Source: Escherichia phage KKP 3954
Length of the DNA stretch: 64,000 nt
Direction: 5' to 3' (one strand)
Sequence record: OR067838.1
Under the pieces are notes generated by a model. The model did no database searches, was not told the origin of the DNA, and saw only the letters and a program-made list of their open reading frames with translations. Positions 2,380 to 55,956 of the stretch are shown here, piece after piece (the stretch's first letter is position 1; each line of letters opens with the position of its first letter). Made by a program: the position numbers and the translations under genes.

Positions 2380-2616
2380 TTATTGATTGATGTTATAATG
2401 AAAATTATTTTCTTCAATAGCTTTTAAAATAAAAGCCGTGATCGCTTTCGTGTCTACTTGTTCGAACGTATCAGAATAGCACCAATAATAATCATCCCCT
2501 ACTTTCGGCGGGTAAACCTGGACAAGGAGATCGCCACCTGGTTGATCTATAAGCTCAACATGCAAGCCGGATGATTCAGCGGTTTTAACGGCGTTTAATA
2601 CTGTTGCAATACTCAT
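2380..2616 (-). CDS. Hypothetical early protein
   Basis: ORF track; ATG start; GC hairpin leader upstream. Confidence 0.55.
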   Translation of the reverse strand: MSIATVLNAVKTAESSGLHVELIDQPGGDLLVQVYPPKVGDDYYWCYSDTFEQVDTKAITAFILKAIEENNFHYNINQ

Positions 2617-2660
2617 AATCTTTCCCTTTCTGATGTGGGGCGTTGCCGCCCCTTTGTTGA

Positions 2661-2960
2661 TTAGATCGCTGTTTCCAGTAGTTCGGCTAACGTCTTACCG
2701 CCTGATAGTTGGTCTAACGTTTGCTCTTCTGGCAAGAAATTAGCTGATATTAAACCGACTTGATTCCCTTTGTGCCAGTTAGCCTGGCGGATGATTCCAT
2801 CCTTTAAGGATTTTACCGCCATTGTGCAACCGTCGCCAAATGATTCATTTTTATGGTCCATCACTTCATAAGCGCCCAGCTTGCTGCTGTTAGGCACCAT
2901 TAACGCGAATACATCACCAACAACCAGTTTTTCTACGGTAACAATAGCGATAGTTTCCAT
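2661..2960 (-). CDS. Hypothetical early protein
   Basis: ORF track; ATG start; promoter and GC hairpin leader at about 2975-3040. Confidence 0.55.
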   Translation of the reverse strand: METIAIVTVEKLVVGDVFALMVPNSSKLGAYEVMDHKNESFGDGCTMAVKSLKDGIIRQANWHKGNQVGLISANFLPEEQTLDQLSGGKTLAELLETAI

Positions 2961-3041
2961 TTTACTTTCCTCATTATCGGCGGCACCATTGCCGCCCTAC
3001 GTGGTAAATATTAGCACACTGGCGATCTGTGTCAATACTTT

Positions 3042-3428
3042 TTATTCAATATAAATCAAATTATCTTCACCAATGTAAGCCGACACGTTCGGCATAAACT
3101 TAGCTGCATTGGTTAGGCGGTTCGCCGTGTTAGTGGTGTATATTTCAGGGCGATCCCAAAAGCCTACGCCGTGACTGTTACGGGTAAAATGTAAATCATT
3201 CCCGATCTGGTTGGCTGTTGCGCCGTCGCTCATTGCCTCAGAGATAGCGGCAAGATTAGCATTAATAAAGGCTGTTACATCCTGGGCGATCCGTTCGTCC
3301 GCGCTAGGAGAAAAATCATAATCGTCTAAGTTATCAATAAAATTACCTTCATGATCCCTTGCTGATTCAGCAAAAATAAAGGCTTCTTTATAACCGTTGA
3401 TGATTTCAATAATGATTTCTGTTTTCAT
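3042..3428 (-). CDS. Hypothetical early protein
   Basis: ORF track 3042..3446; probable ATG at 3428; overlaps upstream gene by about 22 nt. Confidence 0.5.
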   Translation of the reverse strand: MKTEIIIEIINGYKEAFIFAESARDHEGNFIDNLDDYDFSPSADERIAQDVTAFINANLAAISEAMSDGATANQIGNDLHFTRNSHGVGFWDRPEIYTTNTANRLTNAAKFMPNVSAYIGEDNLIYIE

Positions 3429-5283: not shown

Positions 5284-5568
5284 TTATGCAGTAAACAAAC
5301 CATCATTTACAACGGCGGCGATGATCTCCCGTGCCATTGATTCAGGGAAAGGGGCGCTATAGTCCTGGCTTGTCTCGTTGGTATCAGTGATCCAATGATA
5401 AGCTAACGAGTAAACGCCTTTACTAATTGTTTTCAGTGAGATGATGATCACTCGATTAAGCTTATTGGTGAATGTTGCCGTTAATGTGTTACCCTCCTGC
5501 GTCATGTTAGACAAGTAAGCGGCATCATTAACCAGGGAAAACATTAGCACGGTGTTAGCTTTACTCAT
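5284..5568 (-). CDS. Hypothetical early protein
   Basis: ORF track 5284..5628; start moved to ATG 5568 after leader hairpin; SD GAGGA. Confidence 0.55.
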   Translation of the reverse strand: MSKANTVLMFSLVNDAAYLSNMTQEGNTLTATFTNKLNRVIIISLKTISKGVYSLAYHWITDTNETSQDYSAPFPESMAREIIAAVVNDGLFTA

Positions 5569-5695
5569 GATTTCATCCTCAAAGGGGGCGCGGCACCATT
5601 GCCGCCCTACACGATAACTATAACACAATATAAAGCAGGATCAACTTTTATTTTTCCACGGTGTTAGTTTGTTAATCATTGGTGATAAATAACGT

Positions 5696-5854
5696 TTACC
5701 AACGTAAAACAAGTACGCCAACTGATGCAACGGCGGCGATCTCATGTAAGGAGGAAGGTCGCGCGGTGTCATAGTAGGTACCGATAATAGCAATAGCGGC
5801 AACGGCGGCAATATCGGTAATGATTTTTTCTTGTTTTGTTGTGATAGTGGTCAT
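5696..5854 (-). CDS. Hydrophobic small protein (52 aa)
   Basis: Not in ORF track; ATG 5854 behind promoter and leader at about 5870-5930. Confidence 0.4.
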   Translation of the reverse strand: MTTITTKQEKIITDIAAVAAIAIIGTYYDTARPSSLHEIAAVASVGVLVLRW

Positions 5855-5939
5855 AATGTTTTTCTCTTTTATGTGGTCGGGAACTATTCCCGCCCTATGC
5901 GATACATCTTATCAGACCTGGTTATGGTGTCAACCATTT

Positions 5940-6125
5940 TTAAAGATATTTTATATTAATAACGTTTTCAGGTTTAACCTTGTTGTGATGTGCATCAACA
6001 TAGATCAGACCATCGTCAGAAAAGCCCAGGATCACGCCCTGCGCAATAAAACCGTATTCGTCACGGTAACGCACGGCTATTTTTAATGTTGCGTTGTAGG
6101 CTGTTTTAAGCTCGTTTAAAGTCAT
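5940..6125 (-). CDS. Hypothetical early protein
   Basis: ORF track; ATG 6125 with SD AGGGGAT. Confidence 0.55.
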   Translation of the reverse strand: MTLNELKTAYNATLKIAVRYRDEYGFIAQGVILGFSDDGLIYVDAHHNKVKPENVINIKYL

Positions 6126-6180
6126 CTGTGTTTATCCCCTGCATGTAAAAAGAAAGGGCGCTTGATGCGCCCTTGTTATG

Positions 6181-6327
6181 TTAATCCTCTAAATCCATCC
6201 AATTATATTTGTCACTCTTCCCGCGCTTTGTTTTATTACGCTTATCGCCTTTGCGGATCACTTCCTCGTTCCAGGCCTTGCGGATCTTGGAAGATTGAAT
6301 TTTTTCTGCGCGATTAGATGTATTCAT
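6181..6327 (-). CDS. Small basic protein (48 aa)
   Basis: Not in ORF track; SD GAGGAAACA then ATG 6327; behind promoter and leader at 6340-6400. Confidence 0.4.
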   Translation of the reverse strand: MNTSNRAEKIQSSKIRKAWNEEVIRKGDKRNKTKRGKSDKYNWMDLED

Positions 6328-6406
6328 TTTGTTTCCTCTTCATATGAGCGGCACCATTGCCGCTATATTGTTAATTTAAACTGTTTTGTAAAATTGTCAA
6401 GGTTTA

Positions 6407-6760
6407 TCATTCATAAGAGCAAGCAAGGATCACGCCTGCAATATAAAGCCAATAATTTTCCCTTTCTCGTTGGATTTTATCATCGCTGCTATTCTCTTTA
6501 ATGTATCCCCAGGATGTTAACAAGCGATCAATTTCCCAATATTCGAAAGCGATATTGATATCTGATGGCAAACCTTGTAACCATGATGCAAGTGCTTTAA
6601 CAATACTATAATTAAAACGTGATTGGTTATCAGGGTACCAATACTCGGAATTAAAACGGCGCATCAATTCCGCGATCTTCTCTTTTTCGGTTGTAATACC
6701 GTAATCATTAAAATCGATAGCGGCAAGGATGTACTCTTTAATTGCATTTTGTGCTTTCAT
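6407..6760 (-). CDS. Hypothetical early protein
   Basis: ORF track; ATG 6760; promoter and leader at 6775-6835. Confidence 0.55.
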   Translation of the reverse strand: MKAQNAIKEYILAAIDFNDYGITTEKEKIAELMRRFNSEYWYPDNQSRFNYSIVKALASWLQGLPSDINIAFEYWEIDRLLTSWGYIKENSSDDKIQRERENYWLYIAGVILACSYE

Positions 6761-6850
6761 GGTCTTTCTCTCTTTTTGAGCGGGAACTATTCCCGCCCTA
6801 CGTGTAACAGTTTACTAAAAATTAAATCCGTGTCAAGCCTTATTTTGTTA

Positions 6851-7063
6851 CTACCATTTGGTATACCCTGTCTCAATGTTAGTAAACACTGTTATCCCGT
6901 CCTGGCGTTCACTCATTAACATACAAGGCGCTAACATCCTTTCTACTGCCTTGCACTCATTATAAGCGGCGGTGATGTCTCCTGCTGCCTTGTCTTCTGT
7001 GGTGAATGTATCGTTTACGTAAACCTGACCAGCAACAACGGCGACAATAGCAAAAGTAATCAT
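6851..7063 (-). CDS. Hypothetical early protein (hydrophobic N-terminus)
   Basis: ORF track; ATG 7063; promoter with -10 inside the hairpin loop at 7085-7135. Confidence 0.55.
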   Translation of the reverse strand: MITFAIVAVVAGQVYVNDTFTTEDKAAGDITAAYNECKAVERMLAPCMLMSERQDGITVFTNIETGYTKW

Positions 7064-7137
7064 GATGTTTCCTTGTTAATAGTGGTTTCTCTTCTCTATA
7101 GCGCCCATTATAAGGCGCTATAACGAAAAGTCAACGA

Positions 7138-7305
7138 TTATTTTTTAAGGCTTAAAGTACCTAACTTGTCAGCATGACGCAGACCAGGGAAGATCCATTT
7201 GCCTGATTCATCTTTTACCGGGGCTTTAAACGTTGCGCCCAGGTTGGCGGCGTTAACTTTACGTGCAACGTTGCGAGCGGCTTCACGGGTAGCGAAAGTG
7301 ATCAT
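7138..7305 (-). CDS. Hypothetical early protein (about 55 aa)
   Basis: ORF track 7138..7389; start moved to ATG 7305 with SD GAGGAAACA. Confidence 0.5.
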   Translation of the reverse strand: MITFATREAARNVARKVNAANLGATFKAPVKDESGKWIFPGLRHADKLGTLSLKK

Positions 7306-7395
7306 GATGTTTCCTCTTCTCTTTGTTAGGCGGTGGGCTATTCCACCGCCTTGATGAATACAGTTTACTTTATTTTTGCAGTATTGCAAGCGGTT

Positions 7396-7611
7396 TTATG
7401 AAATAAATGTCAAAGTAAAATCATAATCTTTTGACAGTTTATATTGCACCTTGTTACCGTATATGTCACCTTTACGTAAAGATCCACGGATACCGATAAC
7501 ATCCTTCACGTCTTTTAAATTTTTCACGCCTGTAATGTCTTTGTTGAAATACTCGTCATCTGAAAATAAAACTTGCTTTGCATTTTTTAACAAGGTGCGG
7601 ATATTAGCCAT
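7396..7611 (-). CDS. Hypothetical early protein
   Basis: ORF track; ATG 7611; hairpin leader at about 7630-7660. Confidence 0.55.
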   Translation of the reverse strand: MANIRTLLKNAKQVLFSDDEYFNKDITGVKNLKDVKDVIGIRGSLRKGDIYGNKVQYKLSKDYDFTLTFIS

Positions 7612-7701
7612 CGTGATAATCTCTCTTCTGTTGTGAGCGGCACCATTGCCGCCCTATGTAATATATTCTACTCTTTTTCTTTCCGGTGTCAACAATCTTT
7701 T

Positions 7702-7929
7702 TCAGATTAATTCGTCCAGGCATAACAAGCGATCAACGTTGAGATCGGTTAGGCTAATCGTCGGCACCTGGTAGGATTCGATATACTCAACGCTTGCATA
7801 TTCCCCAAAATTAGCAACAGCCCAGTTATTCAAGATTTCACATACATCATTAATCTTTTTGTTTGTTACAACTGCTACAACCTGGGAATAGCCAACGGTG
7901 CCGGATACGCGAACAATATTGATAGCCAT
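7702..7929 (-). CDS. Hypothetical early protein
   Basis: ORF track; ATG 7929; hairpin leader at 7953-7972. Confidence 0.55.
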   Translation of the reverse strand: MAINIVRVSGTVGYSQVVAVVTNKKINDVCEILNNWAVANFGEYASVEYIESYQVPTISLTDLNVDRLLCLDELI

Positions 7930-7983
7930 AATCTTTAATCTCTCTGTTGTGAGCGGGAAACCATTTCCCGCCCTATGCGATAC

Positions 7984-8011
7984 ATCTTACACTAATTTTA
8001 AACGTTGTCAA
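7984..8011 (-). promoter_or_regulatory. Early promoter of the conserved family (TTGACA, 16 nt spacer, TAAGAT), followed by GC stem-loop leader at 7953-7972
   Basis: Hexamers read on minus strand; same architecture in more than 20 copies. Confidence 0.55.
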
Positions 8012-8020
8012 CTGTTTTTA

Positions 8021-8260
8021 TTACATTCCAACCATCGCGGCACGGATCGCAGTAGTGCTATATTTGAAACCGTCTGGAGTTTTATCTTGTCCAGTTTGTT
8101 CCAGAAAAAGCATCATATCCCGCGCCGCATCATTACGATTAGCATTAGCGTTAATAAAATCCAAGGCCAACCGATACAATGATTCATCGTTATTAATCCA
8201 AAGGCTTACATTCCAATGAGTTTTGTTTTTGTGACCGTTGTAAGTTTTAGTAATAGCCAT
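8021..8260 (-). CDS. Hypothetical early protein
   Basis: ORF track; ATG start; promoter and leader upstream. Confidence 0.55.
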   Translation of the reverse strand: MAITKTYNGHKNKTHWNVSLWINNDESLYRLALDFINANANRNDAARDMMLFLEQTGQDKTPDGFKYSTTAIRAAMVGM

Positions 8261-20364: not shown

Positions 20365-20394
20365 TTGACATGTGCAAAGCTCTTTGTGTAGAAT
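20365..20394 (+). promoter_or_regulatory. Sigma70-like promoter (TTGACA, 18 nt spacer, TAGAAT) with the -35 inside an AAAGAGCT/AGCTCTTT inverted repeat
   Basis: Hexamers and flanking inverted repeat seen directly. Confidence 0.45.
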
Positions 20395-20839: not shown

Positions 20840-21147
20840 TGAGTACATTATCATTAGCAGTTACGGTGCACCAGTATTACGAAGAAGCTGTAAAAGATTC
20901 AGAAAATCCATCTACATTAGTATTTGAAGATCGGACTGGTCTTAAATGGGTAGAATCTTGTGGTGAACTTTACTTTTGGTATCCACAAGGTTGCACAAGT
21001 AATTCTAATTTGTATAGTTATGAATTGGAGTATCGTGCGCCTGTAGATGAAGATGATAATTACATCATGTATTATGTTAATAATGGTTGCGGTGAAATGT
21101 TTAATGTAGTATTCTCTAAAGCCTTGAAGTCCGACGAGGAGATGTGA
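20839..21147 (+). CDS. Hypothetical protein
   Basis: ORF track 20836..21147; ATG 20839. Confidence 0.55.
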   Translation: MSTLSLAVTVHQYYEEAVKDSENPSTLVFEDRTGLKWVESCGELYFWYPQGCTSNSNLYSYELEYRAPVDEDDNYIMYYVNNGCGEMFNVVFSKALKSDEEM

Positions 21148-21506
21148 TGAGAAAAGTGCTGTTTGCCTTGCTGTTATTAGCCTCTGCTGGTGTTTTTGCT
21201 CGTGACGGCTTTAAGGTTGGGGCAGATCGCACTAAATTCTTCACATGGTTCGGAGGTGAAGCACTTTACCAAGATGGTAAAGATAAAATAAAATGTAAGT
21301 ATGTAGAAACATTAAAAGGTGTGGATGATTGGGGTGATGCTTATCGAGCAACAGGCTTCTCTTGTAAGAAACACCTTTACATTGTAGTAAAAGAGTTTCA
21401 AGATATAAATAAACAACTTTTTATTTTAGTAGATCCTAGTAAATTTAATGAACGGACAGCTTATGAAGTTGACATGTTCTTAGAATACAAGAAGGAGGAA
21501 AAATGA
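21147..21506 (+). CDS. Secreted protein (signal peptide)
   Basis: ORF track 21144..21506; N-terminus MRKVLFALLLLASAGVFA; SD GAGGAG. Confidence 0.55.
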   Translation: MRKVLFALLLLASAGVFARDGFKVGADRTKFFTWFGGEALYQDGKDKIKCKYVETLKGVDDWGDAYRATGFSCKKHLYIVVKEFQDINKQLFILVDPSKFNERTAYEVDMFLEYKKEEK

Positions 21507-21865
21507 GAGAAACGATTGTAGATGTTGTTATTAATGGTCAACGTTATGTACCTGTTGTAGAGAAAGCTGAACCAGACGCTTTAGATGTTGTTTTTGAAGA
21601 CGATGATCTTGGCACTGTTACTGTGCGTGAATATTTCAGACGACTGCTCTCTACACTTTGGGAAGAAGAAGATAGTTTCAGTGGAAAACGCCCTTTCGGT
21701 AACTCTTGCTGGCAGTTCGATTTGATTATTGGTTTGATCGATGCTGGGTACCTGGAAGGTAAAGTTTATCGTGACGAAGATGGTGGTATAGAAGATACCG
21801 ACTATGATCGTGAAGAAGCAGATAAACTCATCCAGGGTCTGATCGCACGTATGTGTTTAGGTTAA
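21503..21865 (+). CDS. Hypothetical protein (acidic)
   Basis: ORF track; ATGA overlap. Confidence 0.55.
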   Translation: MRETIVDVVINGQRYVPVVEKAEPDALDVVFEDDDLGTVTVREYFRRLLSTLWEEEDSFSGKRPFGNSCWQFDLIIGLIDAGYLEGKVYRDEDGGIEDTDYDREEADKLIQGLIARMCLG

Positions 21866-21869
21866 TATT

Positions 21870-22412
21870 GTGGACATAAAAGAACAACTGTTTTATGCTT
21901 ACTACGCAGGTTGCATAGATTGTGATGGGTCTATTATAAGCAGAAACAGGGAGACTTCAGACTCCTACACAGTAAACCTTACACAACACGAGAGATCGGC
22001 AGAAGAAATGACCGATTTGGCTAAAGAGTTGGAAAGTTATGGATATACTGTCTCTTTCACATCGCGCGTAGCTTGGGCTGAAAAATATGATAATTTGATG
22101 TATAATATCAATGTTAGCAGCAGAGAAAGTGTGATAAGATTGCTTGAGAATTTAATCCCTTATCTCCGTTTCAAAAAAGAGAAAGCGGAAGAGGCTGTCA
22201 GATTGCTAAAAGTGATGGATGTAAAGCAACCTATCATGTATGGTGTGGATGATAGACAAGCTAAACGCCGCTACTGGACAGAGGAAGAAGACCAGATTCT
22301 TGAAAAGTTAAATAGTGAAGGGTATAGTCATGCAGGGATTGGTAAGGTTCTAAACAGATCTCGCAACTCTGTATCCCACAGGTTAATGCGAAATAAGGTC
22401 AACACAAAATAA
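21870..22412 (+). CDS. LAGLIDADG-family homing endonuclease-like protein with C-terminal helix-turn-helix-like region
   Basis: Single motif YAGCIDCDGSI close to the I-CreI-type LAGLIDADG block; C-terminal WTEEEDQIL...GIGKVLNRSRNSV resembles an HTH; GTG start. Confidence 0.55.
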   Translation: MDIKEQLFYAYYAGCIDCDGSIISRNRETSDSYTVNLTQHERSAEEMTDLAKELESYGYTVSFTSRVAWAEKYDNLMYNINVSSRESVIRLLENLIPYLRFKKEKAEEAVRLLKVMDVKQPIMYGVDDRQAKRRYWTEEEDQILEKLNSEGYSHAGIGKVLNRSRNSVSHRLMRNKVNTK

Positions 22413-22424
22413 GAGGAGAATTTT

Positions 22425-22778
22425 TTGAAAAATATTATTGATGTAGATGTGTTTGGTATCACAACACTACAAGACAAACAAGCAACACTGTATTATCATA
22501 AAAAAGAGGACCAAGCTTACATCTACATCGGGGCAGAAAAGTTTGGTGTTGGAGATATGGTTTTAAATGTTGAAGGAGATCTTCCTTTAGAACAAAAGTT
22601 GAAAGTTTTTCGTTTCACAGGAGATGTTAAACTAGACGGCGTTATCGCAATCCTACAAGAAGACCATTATTACATGGTAACTTTCGTTACTCCTGCTTTC
22701 TCTGGCCTTAATGGAGAAGAAGCTCTTAACGATGTTATTATCTTAAAGATTGGTAATGCTCTAAACGATGTAAACTAA
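22425..22778 (+). CDS. Hypothetical protein
   Basis: ORF track; TTG start with SD AAGAGGAG. Confidence 0.5.
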   Translation: MKNIIDVDVFGITTLQDKQATLYYHKKEDQAYIYIGAEKFGVGDMVLNVEGDLPLEQKLKVFRFTGDVKLDGVIAILQEDHYYMVTFVTPAFSGLNGEEALNDVIILKIGNALNDVN

Positions 22779-22791
22779 AGGGGGAGTGAGT

Positions 22792-23301
22792 ATGTTCTTT
22801 GATGCAAATTCTCTTTTTGTATCTACAGCAGGGCAGTCTGCTGTTAATGCAGAATTTGAGGAAAGAGAAGAATGGATTGATAATCACAACTACGATCCAA
22901 GTAATTTAAACTGGTGCAGTTTGGATGTTGGTAATCTTAGTAGAGATAATGCACTTAGAGCATACTACTCTGTATATACTGTTGACAATCTTTATCAATA
23001 CTACGTGTTTCGTAGTCTTATTGTTAATCTTAATTTAGCTGGACGTTTAAAGAACAATAAGGCATTCACATTGGGACATTATATTCCCTTCCGTAAAGGT
23101 GGTGTGCATTTTCCATGTAATTGGATTATTCAAACACGAAAAGAAAATAGTTTAGCAGGAGACACCATGCCAAGATTTAAAGATAAATGGACATGGGAAA
23201 AACAAATGGGGTATATTAATGCACATTTGCCACCTAATCTAAAAGAACCTTATGCCAGCAGAGCTAAGGAAATGATGAGGATTGTCAAGAGTTTTTATTA
23301 A
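22792..23301 (+). CDS. Hypothetical protein
   Basis: ORF track 22786..23301; ATG 22792 with SD AGGGGGAG. Confidence 0.55.
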   Translation: MFFDANSLFVSTAGQSAVNAEFEEREEWIDNHNYDPSNLNWCSLDVGNLSRDNALRAYYSVYTVDNLYQYYVFRSLIVNLNLAGRLKNNKAFTLGHYIPFRKGGVHFPCNWIIQTRKENSLAGDTMPRFKDKWTWEKQMGYINAHLPPNLKEPYASRAKEMMRIVKSFY

Positions 23302-23315
23302 GAGAGGAGAAATAC

Positions 23316-24908
23316 GTGTCTACACAATTGAGTTTTACACCTACCGAGGAACAATACGCTATTGAAAGCGGGTATAAAGAAAATCGTTTCGTTACAATTC
23401 AAGCTAAATCTGGATCAGGTAAAACGTCAACACTGTATATGTTGGCTAATGGCACAAATGATAGTATTCTATACTTGGCGTTTAACAAAAGTATGGCAGA
23501 GGAAGCTCGACGTAAAATGCCGCCTAATGTTATGTGCCGAACGCTACATTCTATCTGCTACCAGCGTCTTCCACAAAACCTTCGACACAAATTGTCTCGT
23601 CCAGAAGGTCAATATGTTAACGTAGCTGGAACTGGTAGTGAGATTGCTAAAAAATTCAAGATTCAGAACTTGATCGATAAGAATGGTAAAGTGCTACTGA
23701 CTCGTGCAATGATCGGGTTAATGGTAAAACAAACTTTAGCTAAATACGAGTTTTCTGACGATGAACATATTGGACATAAACATTTTCCTAAAGTGCATAT
23801 GTCAGATCTTAAACGTAAGAACATCAACGAACAAAAACTTATTAACGAAGTTGTTAAATATGCGAAGCAACTTTGGCGTGAGCGTATTGATCCTAAATCA
23901 GAAACCATTATGACTCATGACACCTATGTGAAACTCTTTGAATTGAGTAAAGAAGATTTAGGATATGATATTATTTTTGGAGATGAATTCCAGGATGTTA
24001 ACCCTGCATTCCTGTCTATCCTTCGCAATGCTAAATCGGCTAAACGTATTGTTGTTGTGGGTGATGAGTTTCAGAGTATTTATCAGTTCCGTGGAAGCCA
24101 GAACATGATGAAGCAAACGGCTACATATGGGGTTGAGTTGCCTCTGACAGCTTGTTTTCGCTTTGGTCCTAAAGTTGCGGACATTGCTAATGCGATCCTT
24201 TCTGATCGCTCACCTCTGAAGCATCCGCTGGTAGGGAAAGGTTATGATACTGTCACTGGAAGTTTTCATTCTGATGTGGTAGATTATAGTAAACCTTACA
24301 CCATTATTTTCCGTAAGAATTTGACCCTGTTGCTCGAAGCTATGGACCGAATCGCTAACGGAGAAGAGATTATTATTAACGTAGATACCAAAGATTTCAT
24401 TTCTATGGTTGATAGTGTTAATGCTTTACGTAGAGGTGATTTGGACAAAGTTAAGCATGAGACAGTTCTACCTTACACTTCTTGGGAAGAATTTGTAGAG
24501 TGTGCAGAATCAGATCCTGATGCAAAACGACTTTTAAACATTGTTGTTTCTGGTAAAGCTAATAATATTGCATACACTTTACGTATGCACCGTAACTCTC
24601 CAACGGCTAAAGTTACTTTAACTACAGCCCACAAATCAAAAGGTTTGGAATGGGATCAGGTTATTGTTGCAAATGACTTCCCTTCTAATTACGATAAGAA
24701 GGGTGAGTGGGTAGGTCTTGAAGAATCAGAACGAAATCTTCTGTATGTTGCACATACACGTTGTATTAAATGTCTGCAATGGAACCGAACTGTTCAAGAG
24801 ATTTTAGACATGCATCGTTTAGGTAAGAGCACGGCTCCTGTATCTGAAGAAGATAAGCTTATAGCTGCCCTTGCTCGTAAGATTAATCAAATCAGAGAGG
24901 ATCGTTAA
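23316..24908 (+). CDS. Superfamily 1 DNA helicase (UvrD/Rep/Dda-like)
   Basis: Walker A AKSGSGKT, motif II GDEFQDVN, motif III VVGDEFQSIYQFRG, C-terminal TAHKSKGLEWD. Confidence 0.8.
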   Translation: MSTQLSFTPTEEQYAIESGYKENRFVTIQAKSGSGKTSTLYMLANGTNDSILYLAFNKSMAEEARRKMPPNVMCRTLHSICYQRLPQNLRHKLSRPEGQYVNVAGTGSEIAKKFKIQNLIDKNGKVLLTRAMIGLMVKQTLAKYEFSDDEHIGHKHFPKVHMSDLKRKNINEQKLINEVVKYAKQLWRERIDPKSETIMTHDTYVKLFELSKEDLGYDIIFGDEFQDVNPAFLSILRNAKSAKRIVVVGDEFQSIYQFRGSQNMMKQTATYGVELPLTACFRFGPKVADIANAILSDRSPLKHPLVGKGYDTVTGSFHSDVVDYSKPYTIIFRKNLTLLLEAMDRIANGEEIIINVDTKDFISMVDSVNALRRGDLDKVKHETVLPYTSWEEFVECAESDPDAKRLLNIVVSGKANNIAYTLRMHRNSPTAKVTLTTAHKSKGLEWDQVIVANDFPSNYDKKGEWVGLEESERNLLYVAHTRCIKCLQWNRTVQEILDMHRLGKSTAPVSEEDKLIAALARKINQIREDR

Positions 24909-25160
24909 ATGGCAGGGTATCACATAACAGACATTAAGAAACAACCTTATGGCAGCATAGAAAAGATTAAAGAGGAAGTAGAAGAACTTTTTGATGCTGT
25001 TGAGCAGGATTGCAAAATAATGCAACTTGTTGAATTGTCAGATATTATAGGGGCTGTCGAGGGAGTTTTAGAACAACAGTTCCCAGATATGACTTTACAA
25101 GATTTAATCATTATGTCCAACATTACTAAACGCGCTTTCCGCACAGGAGGAAGGTCATGA
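24909..25160 (+). CDS. Hypothetical protein
   Basis: ORF track. Confidence 0.5.
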   Translation: MAGYHITDIKKQPYGSIEKIKEEVEELFDAVEQDCKIMQLVELSDIIGAVEGVLEQQFPDMTLQDLIIMSNITKRAFRTGGRS

Positions 25161-25714
25161 ACACAGGTGTGATTGCCGAAGCCATCCAGAGTTATGGACG
25201 CTTTGCTGAAATGTTAGATGTTCCTTATTTAGTGGATGCAGATATTTTGGCATTCACACTGCCACCTGGCAAAGAAGATGCTCCTTTGGGGCATCCTAAT
25301 GGGAAGTTTTATGTTGCCAGTGCCGAGCAATCATTCTTGCAAATGGAAAAGGATGGCTACGAGTTTATCGCTGGTCATCCCTACATGGCCCTGACACCAT
25401 GTTACCGCACAGAGGAAGTGTTGGATGATTCTCACTTCAACATCTTCTTGAAGCTGGAGTTGATTGAGTTCTATCCCAGCTTTGGTGAAGTGAAAGAGTA
25501 TGCCGAAGAAATGCGATACTTCTTCTGGACCTACTACAAAGTCCAAACAAGAATTGTAGAAACAGAAATAGGGCTTGACGTGGAAGACATGAATGGTTTA
25601 GAATTAGGGTCATTCGGAACAAGATTGTCCCCACAAGGTCATCCATATATTTATGCAACAGCCATAGCCGAACCTCGTGCATCTATGGCAATTAACAGGA
25701 GGAATCATGATTAA
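25157..25714 (+). CDS. Hypothetical protein
   Basis: ORF track; SD AGGAGGAAGG. Confidence 0.55.
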   Translation: MNTGVIAEAIQSYGRFAEMLDVPYLVDADILAFTLPPGKEDAPLGHPNGKFYVASAEQSFLQMEKDGYEFIAGHPYMALTPCYRTEEVLDDSHFNIFLKLELIEFYPSFGEVKEYAEEMRYFFWTYYKVQTRIVETEIGLDVEDMNGLELGSFGTRLSPQGHPYIYATAIAEPRASMAINRRNHD

Positions 25715-27092
25715 TAAATTTGCCCGTAAACAGGAAGTTGCTGAAGCAGCACGTCGCGCTGGTGTGTATGACAAATTGTGTGAAGGTATTGTGAAGGTGT
25801 ATGGCTGGGAGGGAGAAGATGATCCAACCTGTTCAGGTGATTTTGCAATGAACGATATGACCTTCCCATATATTTCCTACAATGCCTCCACTGGTGAAAT
25901 AAACGGTGCAACCAGCACCAGTGTTGATCGTTATCCAGACGCAGAACAAACCACAGGAGGTTACATGTTAGATTTGATTCTTAAGAAATCAGGGTTATTG
26001 GGAATCGAAGACGTTTTCGTAGATGCAGATAGTTTATCATTAGGAGATGTTGTTAAACTACTGGTAGACTTTAGATTTGCAACAGGTAAAAGCTTCTGGA
26101 AGCCAGAAGATGCTGAACGTTTGAAGACAATCGATCCAAGTATGTATGAACTGCCACAATATAAAGATAAACAATTCCGCAAGGTTATCTTCTTTGATCG
26201 TCAAGCAGGCTTAGATGCAATGCATATTGAAGTTGGGGATTTACCACGCCCACACTCTGCTGCTACTGGTGATCGCGGCCTTGTAGAAGTCACGGCTCAA
26301 GAATTTAAAAATATGTTTGCTGCGAAATACGATGAAGCTGCGCCTGTGCCAAGTATTGAGGAGCAAGAGGAAGAACAGTTTGTAGCGGAAGATACTGCAT
26401 TTGAATATCTGCCGAACACAGGTGTTATGCCTTCGGAAGATTTCGTGCAGGTTCGCTTCAACAATGGTCAAACAGATGTTGCTAAGGGAACAGTATTCAC
26501 TTGGAATATCGACAATCTGGAAGAGTGGGCGATTAAAGAATACTTCATTCTCCCGCGCACGGCAAAATACAACTATAATAATGGTGGACACCGCCCTTGT
26601 GGTGGTCACGTAGAAGTTCTCTTTCGTGACGGAACTACGGATAGTGGATCGGCTACGCATTTCACTTGGGGTCATGTTGGATATGATCGGGATATTGTTG
26701 GTTGGCTTCCAACTAACAACCCTAAACCACGTTACCGTAAGCCTCGTAAGAAGCCTCCGGTAGGTAAGAAGAGTGTCGTTCGTGTCCTCTACACTACGCA
26801 ACAGACCTACACATTTAAAAATGTGGTAGACGTGCAAGTAACCGAGGAGCGAGTTTATATCCAATATGATCGTGAAGTTACAGAGGGTATCAAAGAATCG
26901 GTTACTACCGAAATTGAAAATAAGCTTGTTATGGCAATCATTGTGGAAGAAAGTAAAGTAGAGAACGGTAAAGCCTATACTGTTCGTGATAGCTTCTTGC
27001 GTAATATCGATGGAACCTGGGATTACAATGGACACGATGGGACCGCTGTGAAGAACGGTAAGATCATGGGAAGACAATTCCTCTCCAAATGA
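25707..27092 (+). CDS. Hypothetical protein (461 aa)
   Basis: ORF track 25677..27092; ATG 25707 with SD AGGAGG; antisense ORF 26241..27077 judged spurious. Confidence 0.6.
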   Translation: MINKFARKQEVAEAARRAGVYDKLCEGIVKVYGWEGEDDPTCSGDFAMNDMTFPYISYNASTGEINGATSTSVDRYPDAEQTTGGYMLDLILKKSGLLGIEDVFVDADSLSLGDVVKLLVDFRFATGKSFWKPEDAERLKTIDPSMYELPQYKDKQFRKVIFFDRQAGLDAMHIEVGDLPRPHSAATGDRGLVEVTAQEFKNMFAAKYDEAAPVPSIEEQEEEQFVAEDTAFEYLPNTGVMPSEDFVQVRFNNGQTDVAKGTVFTWNIDNLEEWAIKEYFILPRTAKYNYNNGGHRPCGGHVEVLFRDGTTDSGSATHFTWGHVGYDRDIVGWLPTNNPKPRYRKPRKKPPVGKKSVVRVLYTTQQTYTFKNVVDVQVTEERVYIQYDREVTEGIKESVTTEIENKLVMAIIVEESKVENGKAYTVRDSFLRNIDGTWDYNGHDGTAVKNGKIMGRQFLSK

Positions 27093-53217: not shown

Positions 53218-53248
53218 TCTTATTGATTTATAAAGAGTTTTTATAAAA

Positions 53249-53279
53249 GAAAAGGGAACCCGCAAAGGTTCCCTTTTTT
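53249..53279. terminator. Bidirectional rho-independent terminator at the convergent junction between the replication module and the tail genes
   Basis: AAAAGGGAACC..GGTTCCCTTTTTT hairpin flanked by A-run and T-run. Confidence 0.65.
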
Positions 53280-53280
53280 A

Positions 53281-55956
53281 TTAGTCGTAATATTTCAAAC
53301 CTGTAATGAACTTCGATCCCCAATCCGCACTTGCGGCGGTGAACGTCAACATCCAAGTTGTAGCTGTACCAGTGAAGACCTCTCGTTGCACAATACCATC
53401 AGTGTGGTAAATGTCCACGCCAGTATGTCCATTCTTAGGAATAGTGAAGGTAACAGCACTGGTAGTGTCTCGTGCATAAGAACAAACAAATGGTGTCCCC
53501 GCCCAAACTGGATTTGTCATATCCCCCATCTCAAGCTGTGGAACCCAAGCAATAAGACCTGCCATACCATCTCCTGCGAAAGTGTCTGATCCACTTGCAT
53601 TCAAAGCTATAATCTCATAGGTTATAGATGCTTGTTTGGCAACTGTCACTTTGTGTAGAATTACACGATACCAACCATTCCCCATATCGATTATGTTTGC
53701 ATCTGCACCTGTAAATGTTCCAGCTACAAGATCATAAGTCCCTTCGTTAATCTCATCTCCTGAAGTCAATTTGAGTTTCACTTTAGTGATCCCATCTGGC
53801 TTCAAGAATACGGATGCCGCCCAGTGCTTACCTGCTGTAATATCAGAAGCTGTATTCACTGCTGATAAAATATGTTGTCCTGAAGTTGTAGAAGGTGTTA
53901 ACTTGTAAGTGTTAGCCGTAGTTCCAACCGGAGAGTTGATTGTTGATGCTGTGACTGTCAAGTTCGTCTTCAACCACGGGGAAGCTGTTGTCAAGTTATT
54001 GTTGATAAAGATATGTATACGGTTGGCTGCTACAACACGTCTACCTTGTGGAGTTGTACCAACATATTCTAAAGGTGCTACGGGAGCAGAACTCTCTGTA
54101 GGTACAAGGATATCTCCAGAAGCCCTGGCATAACGGTTACTCCTGTTGACCTTTACATCCGCCGGAATAGTTTCTTGCGTCAAATCATAGTCCATCACAA
54201 TCACCACAGCATTCACTGCGAGATAAGAACTATCTTCGGCAGTTACCACACCTTGATAAGTTGCTCTACAACCGATACGACAATCCCCATCAGCAACCGC
54301 TGTAATAACGCCTGTAACGGGGTCAACTGTTGCTACCGTAGGATCATTAGAGAAATACTCAACAACCATACCAGGTAAGCTTGCTGCCCCTGTTGGCGTT
54401 ATTTCTGCTACCATTGTTTGTGTTGTTCCTACATCCATCGCAGATAAGCTAGGAGTGTAAACGCTCAATGTTGAAGCATATCCTCCAGAGGTATCTGATA
54501 AAGTTGTTCCTTCAGCGTTTAAGGCTGTCATACCTGCATCAAAACCACCTTCTGCATGGAAAGTCATTAAACCAGTAGATGATATTGTCATGTTTGCAGG
54601 GGCAGAAGAAGTGTATTTAATATTGAAAAGTTTACCTCCTTCTGGGCTAACAGAATGTGTCAACTGTTTAGTTCCACCTACAATACAAATTCCTAAAGAA
54701 TCTGTAGTTAAGCCAGTTGCCAGAACATCACCCGTAATCACGGAGCTTGCTATTGGTGTGAATTTATTATAGTTTAGACCACTATTGAACAGATACGAAG
54801 CTTTCCCATCTTTCCAAATACCGGAATAATACATATCTCCATTATAAACGAAAAAGGTTCCTTGATAACCTAATTGGTTAGTAACATCCATATTCAGCGT
54901 ATGAACGCTTGTGAGCTTGTTTATATCCCAAGAACCCACTCCTTCAGGTTTAACTGGTTTTCCCACTTGGAGTGGATCTCCGCTCGCAGAATCATACCCC
55001 AAACCTAAGTTTGCAGTGTAGTTCTTACCAATAGCCCACAAGGAATTATTGATCCCAACGAAAAAAGAGTGGCGGCTTGGTGGAAACTTCCATGTTGAGA
55101 AACCTGCTGCAAAGGTATCCAGTTTAGTGTAGGTTGTTTCTGTATTAGATCTAACATATAAGTAGTTTACCATACCCGTGCCACCGGAGGTATCTCCTAC
55201 AACTATTGTCTGGGAAACTGTATTGATGTAATCTTTGACATACACTGTTTCAGTAGCGGATATCTTGGCATTGACAAAAGCTGTTGTTGTGTTATTATTA
55301 CCTGCTAAACCTTTACTAGCTCCACAAACACGCAAGGTTCCCACATTGTTGACATAAGAGCATTGGTTGTAACCTGCATCAAAAGCAACTGCTGCACTCG
55401 TTATTTGACGAGGAGTAGAAACTTCGTTAGTAGTACTTGCACCTAAACTGCCTACTGTGTTTTGACCCGATCCATAAAGAACGCCACTATTCATTAACCA
55501 GAGAGTGTTATTATATCCTCCCTTAACCTCTTTAAGATTGGCTAAAGAGATAGTCCCCGTTATTACAGATGGAAAGCTGGTCCAAGTAGTTACACATGCA
55601 TCCATACCACCTGCTGCTATAGATCCTACCAACCCTGCTGTCAATCCTGAATATTGCCATCCCCCACTATTAGTTTTAATAATAAAACAACGATCTGCGG
55701 TAAACACATCCGCTACTACAGTAGAAGCTAAGTAGAAATTATTGAATCGTGCACTACGAGTTCCATCTGCAATCTCACCAAAAAGGTTTGCACCTTGAGT
55801 AAACAATCTACCATCGTTAAGCAAAATTGCTAAACTACTGTTAGAATTACCAGCATTGTCTGGGTAATCTAAAGTGATTACTTTTTTAACAATACCCGCT
55901 GGCAGAGGAACGACACCAGTACTGGTCATAATAGTAAATATTGGAATTGGAAACAT
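53281..55956 (-). CDS. Large tail fiber / receptor-binding protein (891 aa)
   Basis: ORF track; Gly/Thr/Ser/Asn/Val-rich beta-rich composition; tail-gene context; SD GGAGGG; in-frame GTATAC at 54015 with no break. Confidence 0.55.
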   Translation of the reverse strand: MFPIPIFTIMTSTGVVPLPAGIVKKVITLDYPDNAGNSNSSLAILLNDGRLFTQGANLFGEIADGTRSARFNNFYLASTVVADVFTADRCFIIKTNSGGWQYSGLTAGLVGSIAAGGMDACVTTWTSFPSVITGTISLANLKEVKGGYNNTLWLMNSGVLYGSGQNTVGSLGASTTNEVSTPRQITSAAVAFDAGYNQCSYVNNVGTLRVCGASKGLAGNNNTTTAFVNAKISATETVYVKDYINTVSQTIVVGDTSGGTGMVNYLYVRSNTETTYTKLDTFAAGFSTWKFPPSRHSFFVGINNSLWAIGKNYTANLGLGYDSASGDPLQVGKPVKPEGVGSWDINKLTSVHTLNMDVTNQLGYQGTFFVYNGDMYYSGIWKDGKASYLFNSGLNYNKFTPIASSVITGDVLATGLTTDSLGICIVGGTKQLTHSVSPEGGKLFNIKYTSSAPANMTISSTGLMTFHAEGGFDAGMTALNAEGTTLSDTSGGYASTLSVYTPSLSAMDVGTTQTMVAEITPTGAASLPGMVVEYFSNDPTVATVDPVTGVITAVADGDCRIGCRATYQGVVTAEDSSYLAVNAVVIVMDYDLTQETIPADVKVNRSNRYARASGDILVPTESSAPVAPLEYVGTTPQGRRVVAANRIHIFINNNLTTASPWLKTNLTVTASTINSPVGTTANTYKLTPSTTSGQHILSAVNTASDITAGKHWAASVFLKPDGITKVKLKLTSGDEINEGTYDLVAGTFTGADANIIDMGNGWYRVILHKVTVAKQASITYEIIALNASGSDTFAGDGMAGLIAWVPQLEMGDMTNPVWAGTPFVCSYARDTTSAVTFTIPKNGHTGVDIYHTDGIVQREVFTGTATTWMLTFTAASADWGSKFITGLKYYD

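Follow-up and report, generated by a model that had tools for sequence, protein, structure and literature searches.

The stretch of DNA analysed here, which we call the window, comprises 64,000 nucleotides (nt) of Escherichia phage KKP 3954 (OR067838.1) and carries, at 21870-22412 on the plus strand, a free-standing gene for a protein of 180 amino acids (aa) that joins a LAGLIDADG core to a helix-turn-helix (HTH) domain at the C-terminus. The window belongs to Phapecoctavirus, the genus of phAPEC8-like E. coli myoviruses, and over 21000-23400 it shares 99.3% identity with phage 536P1 and 99.1% with Schickermooser. The gene lies inside a same-strand array of small early genes, between two neighbours that are kept whether the place holds this gene or a different one, with a DUF4326 domain. 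We consider it probable that the product of the gene is an active I-CreI-type homing endonuclease, free-standing and from a lineage that targets DUF4326 genes, and that the gene has displaced its own target in this phage. The features of the gene and its neighbours are the following:

21503..21865, + strand: upstream flanking gene, 120 aa, without family match, kept in phages with either allele
21870..22412, + strand: endonuclease gene, free-standing LAGLIDADG-HTH, 180 aa, GTG start, TAA stop, matching phrog_16747
21870..22229, + strand: predicted I-CreI-type LAGLIDADG core, residues 1-120 (alpha1, beta1-2, alpha2, beta3-4, alpha3, alpha4), from an AlphaFold2 (AF2) model, Foldseek, hhalign and phmmer
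21903..21929, + strand: LAGLIDADG motif YAGCIDCDG, residues 12-20, D19 corresponding to the catalytic D20 of I-CreI
21984..21986, + strand: codon of Q39, corresponding to I-CreI Q47, within the NLTQH motif, invariant in the family
22173..22175, + strand: codon of K102, corresponding to I-CreI K98, within the PYLRFKK motif, invariant in the family
22230..22280, + strand: predicted flexible linker, residues 121-137, with a KRRYW stretch and the invariant W136; predicted local distance difference test (pLDDT) below 50 for residues 119-128 in the AF2 model
22281..22409, + strand: predicted three-helix GcrA/Myb/HTH_38-like HTH domain, residues 138-180, from AF2 and profiles
22425..22778, + strand: downstream flanking gene, 117 aa, TTG start, without family match, kept in phages with either allele

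The endonuclease gene and its two domains

The topology of the AF2 model, together with structural and profile matches, assigns the protein to the I-CreI-type LAGLIDADG fold. In the model the secondary structure runs in the order helix 3-18, strand 21-26, strand 31-40, helix 44-56, strand 61-70, strand 73-82 and helix 85-98, and in a Foldseek comparison with the PDB its best 46 matches were all I-CreI, I-CvuI, I-MsoI or engineered derivatives (E ~1e-6; root-mean-square deviation of 1.9 A over 120 columns for 1bp7_A). Searching the PDB with phmmer gave weak, domain-long matches to I-MsoI, I-CvuI and I-CreI. There is one LAGLIDADG motif per chain (YAGCIDCDGSI, residues 12-22). An exhaustive profile search returned 2,352 matches at E<=0.001, 161 of them at E<=1e-10, several dozen of the best 150 having the same full-length architecture, and the family alignment was built from 47 full-length members (the family thus counts at least 47) with 24-77% identity to the window protein. 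The profile of these 47 members aligned by hhalign to I-CreI with a probability of 97% (E 2.9e-11), setting D19 on D20, Q39 on Q47 and K102 on K98. Residues A13, D17, G20, Q39, K102 and W136 are invariant in the 47 members, D19 is conserved in at least 90% of them, and the helix-packing motif shows conserved A13 and G14 in the alignment. Pfam profiles at E<=0.01 recognise many members (26/47 for LAGLIDADG_1, 19/47 for LAGLIDADG_3), and the PHROG family matched by the window protein (PHROG 16747, E 7e-46) bears the label 'unknown function'. The catalytic Asp and Gln are separated by 20 residues in the window protein versus 27 in I-CreI, and these seven missing residues suggest a shorter beta1-beta2 hairpin. 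When metagenome contigs were scanned with the family alignment, mostly generic LAGLIDADG domains were obtained (query residues ~10-117), and only L031 was a true family member.

Three helices make up the C-terminal domain in the AF2 model (138-149, 154-161 and 165-177). HTH domains of the GcrA/Myb/HTH_38 type are three-helix bundles that have a recognition helix and, in helix 1, a conserved Trp, to which the invariant W136 would answer. Its profile matches the GcrA DNA-binding domain best, over the whole length (5yiu; E 1.3e-5, positions 7-50), then Myb (2.8e-5), then RcsB. Taken alone, the window protein has sub-cutoff Pfam matches to HTH_38 (E 2.4e-4), Myb (E 1.6e-3) and also GcrA; Sigma70_r4_2 reaches E 0.011, and sigma-70 region 4 profiles in general E 0.011-0.029, well under cutoff. 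At E<=0.01, 14/47 family members match HTH_38 and 4/47 match Sigma70_r4_2. The classification of this HTH relies on profiles because a single-sequence AF2 model of the domain by itself was uninformative (pLDDT 65; nothing below E=4 in Foldseek against the PDB). By these profiles the domain is best described as GcrA/Myb-like, sigma-70 region 4 being a related HTH class and not the best match. The first-pass annotation of this DNA, made from the letters, had proposed a single-motif I-CreI-like LAGLIDADG protein with a C-terminal HTH of the sigma-70 region 4 or Myb type. AF2, Foldseek, hhalign and the C-terminal profile agree with that architecture, and the Myb assignment stands, in the company of GcrA and HTH_38, whereas the one to sigma-70 region 4 is weak.

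As also claimed there, the gene starts on GTG, at 21870, 4 nt (TATT) after the TAA of the upstream gene (21863-21865). This start is supported by homologues, which begin with ATG at that codon (in L016, for example, 'ATG GAA ATA AAA GAG CAG'). No plus-strand promoter-like site was found in the ~570 nt 5' of the start and no terminator nearby; the only nearby plus-strand promoter-like matches fall within the endonuclease open reading frame (ORF). Upstream of the small-gene array that includes the gene there is a strong sigma-70-like promoter match (20365-20394, + strand; TTGACA, 18-nt spacer, TAGAAT; 11/12), a plausible early promoter of the cluster. Across the 64-kb window no Rfam family reached its gathering score (no tRNA, intron or known small RNA family), and in 21000-23300 no Rfam intron matched even at E<=1; the gene is therefore free-standing. 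An ORF encoded by a group I intron is ruled out by this lack of an intron match and by the way the endonuclease ORF abuts the neighbouring ORFs, and an intein-associated endonuclease is ruled out as well, since the ORF is an independent one of 180 aa without Hint or intein Pfam matches.

Four states of one slot in Phapecoctavirus

Among sibling phages, we found the slot between the 120-aa and the 117-aa genes in four states. The first is the endonuclease gene, present at 99.8-100% nt identity in 11 other isolates (Schickermooser, 536P1, WPEC1, WPEC2, WPEC4, WPEC6, ukendt, 10C3, 118, iGC_PHA_EC001 and MirsaeidiM). The second is the copy of ukendt, 544 nt long against the usual 543 and split by annotation into two ORFs of 127 and 69 aa (L030 301-844), which reflects either a true frameshift, making it a pseudogene, or an error of sequencing. 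In the third state, only the last 106 nt of the gene are kept (AV126, nepoznato and DIJ07P2), and the 446-nt deletion is bounded by 5-nt direct repeats GTTAA at 21861-21865 and 22307-22311. The fourth, with 57 records, is an unrelated gene of 122 aa with a DUF4326 domain (Pfam E 1.3e-21). Endonuclease gene and DUF4326 do not co-occur: 0/57 DUF4326 records have the endonuclease gene or its remnant, and no DUF4326 was found in the 64-kb window or in the complete genome of 536P1, which has one endonuclease gene. Compared with phAPEC8, the replacement is exact, the endonuclease gene of the window occupying precisely the DUF4326 slot, with these boundaries:

21861..22306, + strand: 446-nt deletion of the remnant alleles (AV126, nepoznato and DIJ07P2), which keep only 22307-22412 of the gene
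21866..21869, + strand: left junction of the allele replacement; 'TAATAT' is common to the DUF4326 phages, with divergence from 21869 in the alignment with phAPEC8
22413..22425, + strand: right junction, GAGGAGAATTTTT; these 13 nt also end the DUF4326 gene of phAPEC8, and homology with the DUF4326 phages resumes here
21347..22941, no strand: 1,595-nt tract without differences from 536P1, approximately centred on the gene with ~525 nt on each side

The first-pass annotation had set the gene between unrelated small genes, which is true, but the slot is not an arbitrary one, as a DUF4326 gene sits there in most siblings. It had also taken the gene for a mobile insertion. Its variable presence, its decayed copies and its kept catalytic residues all fit this; the genus, however, holds no naive empty site, since the alternative allele is the DUF4326 gene and the 'empty-looking' genomes carry the 3' remnant of the endonuclease gene. 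Neither of the two signs that would speak for a settled, inactive gene was found, as it is not present in all relatives and its catalytic acidic residues are retained.

Two observations concern the records themselves. The DUF4326 gene of the slot, gp037 in phAPEC8 (L003 2368-2736) and its equivalent across the 57 records, carries the RefSeq name 'ribonucleotide reductase NrdA-like' without having a ribonucleotide reductase domain, which looks like a propagated misannotation. In PV659873.1 (WPEC1) the endonuclease query matches over 89% of its length only and at 4 places in the record, for which misassembly or a rearrangement may be responsible.

The endonuclease alleles are almost identical, with 0-1 nt differences in 543, as against up to 4.6% among DUF4326 alleles, one of several signs of recent horizontal spread. 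Over 6.8 kb, 262 sites (3.7%) distinguish the window from 536P1, and the flanks that adjoin the tract without differences (21347..22941) differ by ~1.7-2%, which makes this tract a candidate for co-conversion or recombination; the flanks of Schickermooser diverge by ~1.25% within 600 nt. Upstream of the gene the isolates show two backgrounds, which differ by an extra 101-aa gene and a diverged block; one of them is also found with DUF4326 (tuntematon). In MirsaeidiM, WPEC4 and tuntematon the extra 101-aa gene lies at an insertion point at ~21145, and the 120-aa gene at 21144-21506 is strongly diverged (31-58 differences per 150 nt); the block ~21145-21557 is a mosaic, independent of the endonuclease/DUF4326 allele.

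A metagenome-only lineage (P0002; loci L008-L010) shows the same endonuclease-only arrangement, its protein being 76% identical to that of the window (73% in nt), with flanking genes 57-73% identical and the UvrD helicase 88%. As these flanks are as diverged as the gene itself, the gene is old at this slot, and a recent insertion as its sole history has to be tempered accordingly. Between the window gene and the L008 homologue, nonsynonymous divergence (pN) is 0.15 and synonymous divergence (pS) a saturated 0.78, in both domains, which shows strong purifying selection on each of them. In L010 the UvrD-type helicase has 879 aa instead of 533, with Hint/intein matches (5436-8075), and a 339-aa T5orf172/DUF723 gene is inserted upstream (1489-2508); other mobile elements therefore segregate in the same neighbourhood.

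Elsewhere in the window, two further segments differ from 536P1. The first, 25112-26727 (ORFs 25157-25714 and 25677-27092), is hypervariable or replaced, with 152 differences in 600 nt at 25112-25711 and ~1 kb without megablast match at 25702-26727. The second, 53225-54206, is the C-terminal region of a large, tail-fibre-like protein of 891 aa (minus-strand ORF 53281-55956) and is without megablast match in 536P1, probably a swapped receptor-binding domain.

Insertion footprints in the DUF4326 genes of relatives

The association with DUF4326 extends to the relatives of the gene. At 9 loci, on diverse phage backgrounds, a DUF4326 gene lies immediately 5' of the endonuclease gene, mostly abutting it and 57 nt apart in L114. 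Members P0003-P0006 (50-57% identity to the window protein) are all directly 3' of DUF4326, on at least three genomic backgrounds, and the more distant P0011, P0022, L023, L031 and P0014 also adjoin it. Members without DUF4326 nearby are those of RB43, RB16, KP27 and P0008 (between nrdB and denA), of PcCB7V, a Pectobacterium phage homologue annotated as I-CreI-like, and P0009. The nrdB-denA interval is a classical hotspot for homing endonuclease genes. The family member of RB43 lies at 2459-3016 of L029, and that of L111 at 2501-3058, with an HNH-AP2 gene ~1.5 kb downstream. DUF4326 itself is placed in the rhodanese-phosphatase superfamily, and a role in conflicts between virus and host is predicted for it, as a processor of the terminal phosphates on ADP-ribose derivatives (PMC9503650).

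Several relatives have kept footprints of insertion. In L011 a 32-codon DUF4326 3' fragment (E 3e-10 against the DUF4326 profile) directly follows the endonuclease stop codon, and in P0011/L017, P0022/L020 and P0103 the C-terminus of the endonuclease runs on in frame into such a fragment. All four displaced fragments start at the second Cys of the CxC...CHGD motif, and each looks like the C-terminal end that its own lineage typically has; L014 keeps just the last 9 nt of the displaced end. This insertion point is within the most conserved motif of DUF4326, and homing endonucleases and inteins usually insert at the most conserved coding motif. An ancestral DUF4326 query, predicted by joining the 5' part of L011 to its remnant, found a natural protein of 113 aa that is 94% identical (P0156), on a contig (L115) that has the gene order of L011 and L014 without the endonuclease gene. 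Relative to L115, the DUF4326 genes of L011 and L014 are 92.8% and 98.4% identical in their 5' part and only 68.5% and 66.3% after the CxC codon, and the displaced remnant of L011 is 83.9% identical to the native 3' end of L115. Occupied and empty sites thus differ from the second Cys codon onwards, a breakpoint that holds for these relatives and not for the window copy. From the remnants and the identity break it follows that in these phages the mobile unit is made up of the endonuclease gene together with a substitute 3' end of DUF4326, entering at one fixed codon.

The substitute 3' end has a longer loop between the Cys residues (KQEGKxVx). An alignment of DUF4326 proteins P0156-P0178, L003, L011, L013, L014 and L016 showed that the stretch from CxC to CHGD is dimorphic, with either 4 residues ([AS]P[AQ]x) or 8 (KQ[EP][GD][KR][ED]V[AP]), the long form being present in 11/29 related DUF4326 proteins. 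Up to the loop P0160 and P0161 do not differ, and beyond it they are almost the same. Judging from these sequences, it looks as if the long loop spreads horizontally, possibly as a cleavage-resistant allele. A strict rule, by which the long loop accompanies the endonuclease and the short loop its absence, was rejected by L117, L016, L114 and L023. The endonuclease genes of L011 and L014 (4070-4540) are only 54-77% identical, on flanks of 80-95% and with DUF4326 at 89-95%, which suggests replacement by another endonuclease lineage or fast evolution.

Proposed target replacement, competing readings and known systems

We propose that the window enzyme would act as a homodimer, in which the linker and the GcrA/Myb-like HTH take the place of the C-terminal subdomain of I-CreI and probably add contacts to flanking DNA. 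Homodimeric I-CreI-like LAGLIDADG enzymes leave 4-nt 3' overhangs on cleavage. Endonuclease genes of this family would home into the small DUF4326 gene at the second-Cys codon of CxC...CHGD. In the distant relatives the mobile unit would restore an intact DUF4326 and leave the native 3' end behind the endonuclease gene; in the Phapecoctavirus lineage of the window the endonuclease gene stands alone in the DUF4326 slot, and with the gene in place of DUF4326 its own genome would have no target. During a mixed infection the enzyme could then cut the DUF4326 gene of siblings that carry it, and the break would be repaired from the endonuclease-carrying genome through the flanking genes, which are 98-100% identical. 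The DUF4326 allele would be converted to the endonuclease allele, nearby markers being co-converted, and the endonuclease gene may later decay by frameshift or by microhomology deletion.

A number of points weigh against this proposal. That the window copy is catalytically active, dimerises and homes, and which site it would target, is deduced from sequence, and cleavage, dimerisation and homing are predictions for every family member. The Pfam LAGLIDADG_3 match of the window protein stays below the gathering cutoff (E 7.8e-4; 20.1 bits, cutoff 22.5), and the AF2 alignment had only 7 sequences, 2 of the 5 models being poor. The only trace of DUF4326 in or beside the window gene is the shared 13-nt GAGGAGAATTTTT, which is uninformative as a remnant because the 117-aa gene downstream also uses it as ribosome-binding site and start region; the window copy would be tied to DUF4326 by its position and by its relatives. 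Around the insertion point of four short-loop DUF4326 genes no pseudo-palindromic target was found, the best candidates (5-6/11) equalling the gene-wide background. The loop forms do not follow the endonuclease consistently, as L117 has a long-loop DUF4326 and lacks the endonuclease gene, which L016, L114 and L023 combine with a short or nearly short loop. The nuclease-dead remnant allele occurs on different flanking backgrounds (AV126 vs nepoznato), so general recombination alone can shuffle alleles at this locus, and, by the comparison with the metagenome-only lineage, the endonuclease gene may have been largely inherited vertically at this slot.

For the family as a whole we hypothesise, tentatively and with clearly less conviction than for the window gene, a natural 'cut-and-rescue' or gene-replacement drive that homes into the codons of the DUF4326 active-site motif. 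In one form it would bring in a cleavage-resistant, long-loop substitute 3' end, so that the target gene survives; in the other, that of the window, the target gene would be replaced entirely and the genome would be immune for want of a target. Long-loop DUF4326 genes without endonuclease (L117) would then be resistance alleles left behind or selected by the drive.

The alternative that survives best, although we judge it unlikely, is that the nuclease is active and DUF4326 is not its target here: the slot would alternate through cassette exchange by general recombination between co-infecting phages, and the enzyme may cut a competitor phage, the host or some other cognate site. The dead remnant on different backgrounds speaks for it, as do the lack of a palindromic candidate site in DUF4326 and of a DUF4326 remnant in the window, and the members found away from DUF4326 (RB43-like phages, PcCB7V and L113), which indicate that specificity varies within the family. 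Against it, the closest relatives outside the endonuclease-only arrangement, P0003-P0006 (50-57%), are all linked to DUF4326, the gene occupies the exact DUF4326 slot in mutual exclusion, four independent DUF4326 remnants share one breakpoint, and the endonuclease alleles are almost monomorphic, unlike those of DUF4326.

Rather less probable is a domesticated, WhiA-like DNA-binding protein that regulates the neighbouring early genes and no longer cuts DNA; the first-pass annotation had suggested a possible co-option as a DNA-binding regulator. The architecture parallels that of WhiA (PMC3384342), the HTH is closest to that of the regulator GcrA, the gene has persisted at its slot with purifying selection on both domains, and it lies inside an early-gene array without promoter or terminator of its own. 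WhiA, however, lost its catalytic residues, whereas D19, Q39 and K102 are conserved across this family, and a regulator sits poorly with a dispensable, patchily distributed gene that has deletion and frameshift alleles and gives way to an unrelated gene in most isolates, or with the site-specific insertion footprints of its relatives in DUF4326. The suggestion is thus not upheld, although by analogy with I-TevI the HTH may have a secondary, autoregulatory role.

We give slightly less weight again to an intact-looking but functionally dead relic that drifts towards loss. Homing endonuclease genes degenerate once they are fixed or their targets become rare (the cycle model), and decay alleles do exist within the genus; yet the window ORF is full-length with intact catalytic residues and is identical in several isolates, purifying selection has acted over the long term relative to the L008 homologue, and targets are potentially abundant, DUF4326 alleles being the majority. 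Least probable by some way is a functional two-gene module with DUF4326 for counter-defence or for nucleotide or ADP-ribose processing, in which the endonuclease protein regulates or cooperates with the predicted phosphatase: the tight adjacency at 9 loci, with often overlapping stop and start codons, and the predicted processing of ADP-ribose-derived phosphates in virus-host conflicts (PMC9503650) fit it, but the two genes exclude each other in Phapecoctavirus, phages with neither are viable, L115 has DUF4326 without the endonuclease in an otherwise identical context, and the displaced 3' ends with their sharp one-codon identity break indicate insertion and not co-evolution.

By itself the window gene is a fairly ordinary homing endonuclease, and its interest lies at the level of the family, with the fixed insertion codon in DUF4326, the substitute 3' end and the outright replacement of the target in Phapecoctavirus. 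If active, the enzyme would reveal how an accessory HTH extends the recognition of a minimal I-CreI scaffold whose hairpin is shortened, which is relevant to meganuclease engineering, and it would be an active counterpart to the 'domesticated' architecture of WhiA. It would also offer a tractable system for endonuclease-driven allele replacement and the evolution of resistance alleles in lytic phages, as E. coli Phapecoctavirus isolates with endonuclease, DUF4326 and remnant alleles already exist. The gene that was displaced is predicted to encode a counter-defence enzyme; which allele a phage carries could therefore affect its counter-defence repertoire and, through it, possibly host range, and this in a genus under collection for biocontrol (PMC10844046). 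Our literature searches found no paper on the HTH fusion, the family, its linkage with DUF4326 or its activity, and no biochemically described family of catalytically intact, single-domain LAGLIDADG-HTH enzymes. Earlier mentions of the family are annotations only: RB43ORF066w and the 'intron-encoded endonuclease I-CreI' of PcCB7V belong to it (38-41% identity), and the former was listed in 2006 as a putative mobile element with a weak LAGLIDADG Pfam match (E 0.15; PMC1524935).

Among known enzymes, I-CreI, I-MsoI and I-CvuI are the best structural and profile matches and share the core fold, the single motif per chain and the equivalents of D20, Q47 and K98; the window's 'AG-x-[IV]-D-x-DGSI' is almost identical to 'AGFVDGDGSI' of I-CreI. 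They are, in contrast, encoded in group I introns of algal chloroplast rRNA, while the window gene is free-standing in a phage, and the C-terminal helical subdomain and loop of I-CreI are replaced by linker and HTH, at an overall identity of ~20%. The closest known architecture is that of WhiA/DUF199, a bacterial regulator of sporulation and the cell cycle with a LAGLIDADG scaffold, a C-terminal HTH and lost catalytic residues (PMC3384342). Of the features that define the WhiA regulators only the C-terminal HTH is shared, as WhiA has two degenerate LAGLIDADG domains per chain and does not cut DNA, whereas the window protein has one domain with conserved catalytic residues and is encoded by a mobile, dispensable gene. 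I-TevI, which is also an autorepressor, is likewise modular, its catalytic domain being combined with a flexible linker and a small DNA-binding HTH module, and moonlighting regulation is possible (PMC3384342), but its fold is GIY-YIG and its HTH provides most of the binding, whereas the LAGLIDADG saddle of the window enzyme should itself bind DNA.

The free-standing homing endonucleases characterised in phages are mostly of the GIY-YIG or HNH kind. The closest biology is the intronless homing of the T4-like Seg and Mob endonucleases, with which the window gene shares a position beside conserved genes, a variable presence and the predicted cutting of the endonuclease-free allele with co-conversion of its flanks. 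Seg and Mob are GIY-YIG or HNH nucleases, unlike the LAGLIDADG enzyme of the window, and differ also in that relatives of the window gene bring a substitute 3' end of the target and the window phage replaces the target gene outright. For the relatives (L011, L017, L020 and P0103), and not for the window itself, there is a further analogy to islands that target tRNA genes and to synthetic cleave-and-rescue drives, in which the inserted DNA restores the 3' end of its target; the tRNA-gene islands do so by integrase recombination, whereas here we propose repair of an endonuclease-driven double-strand break.

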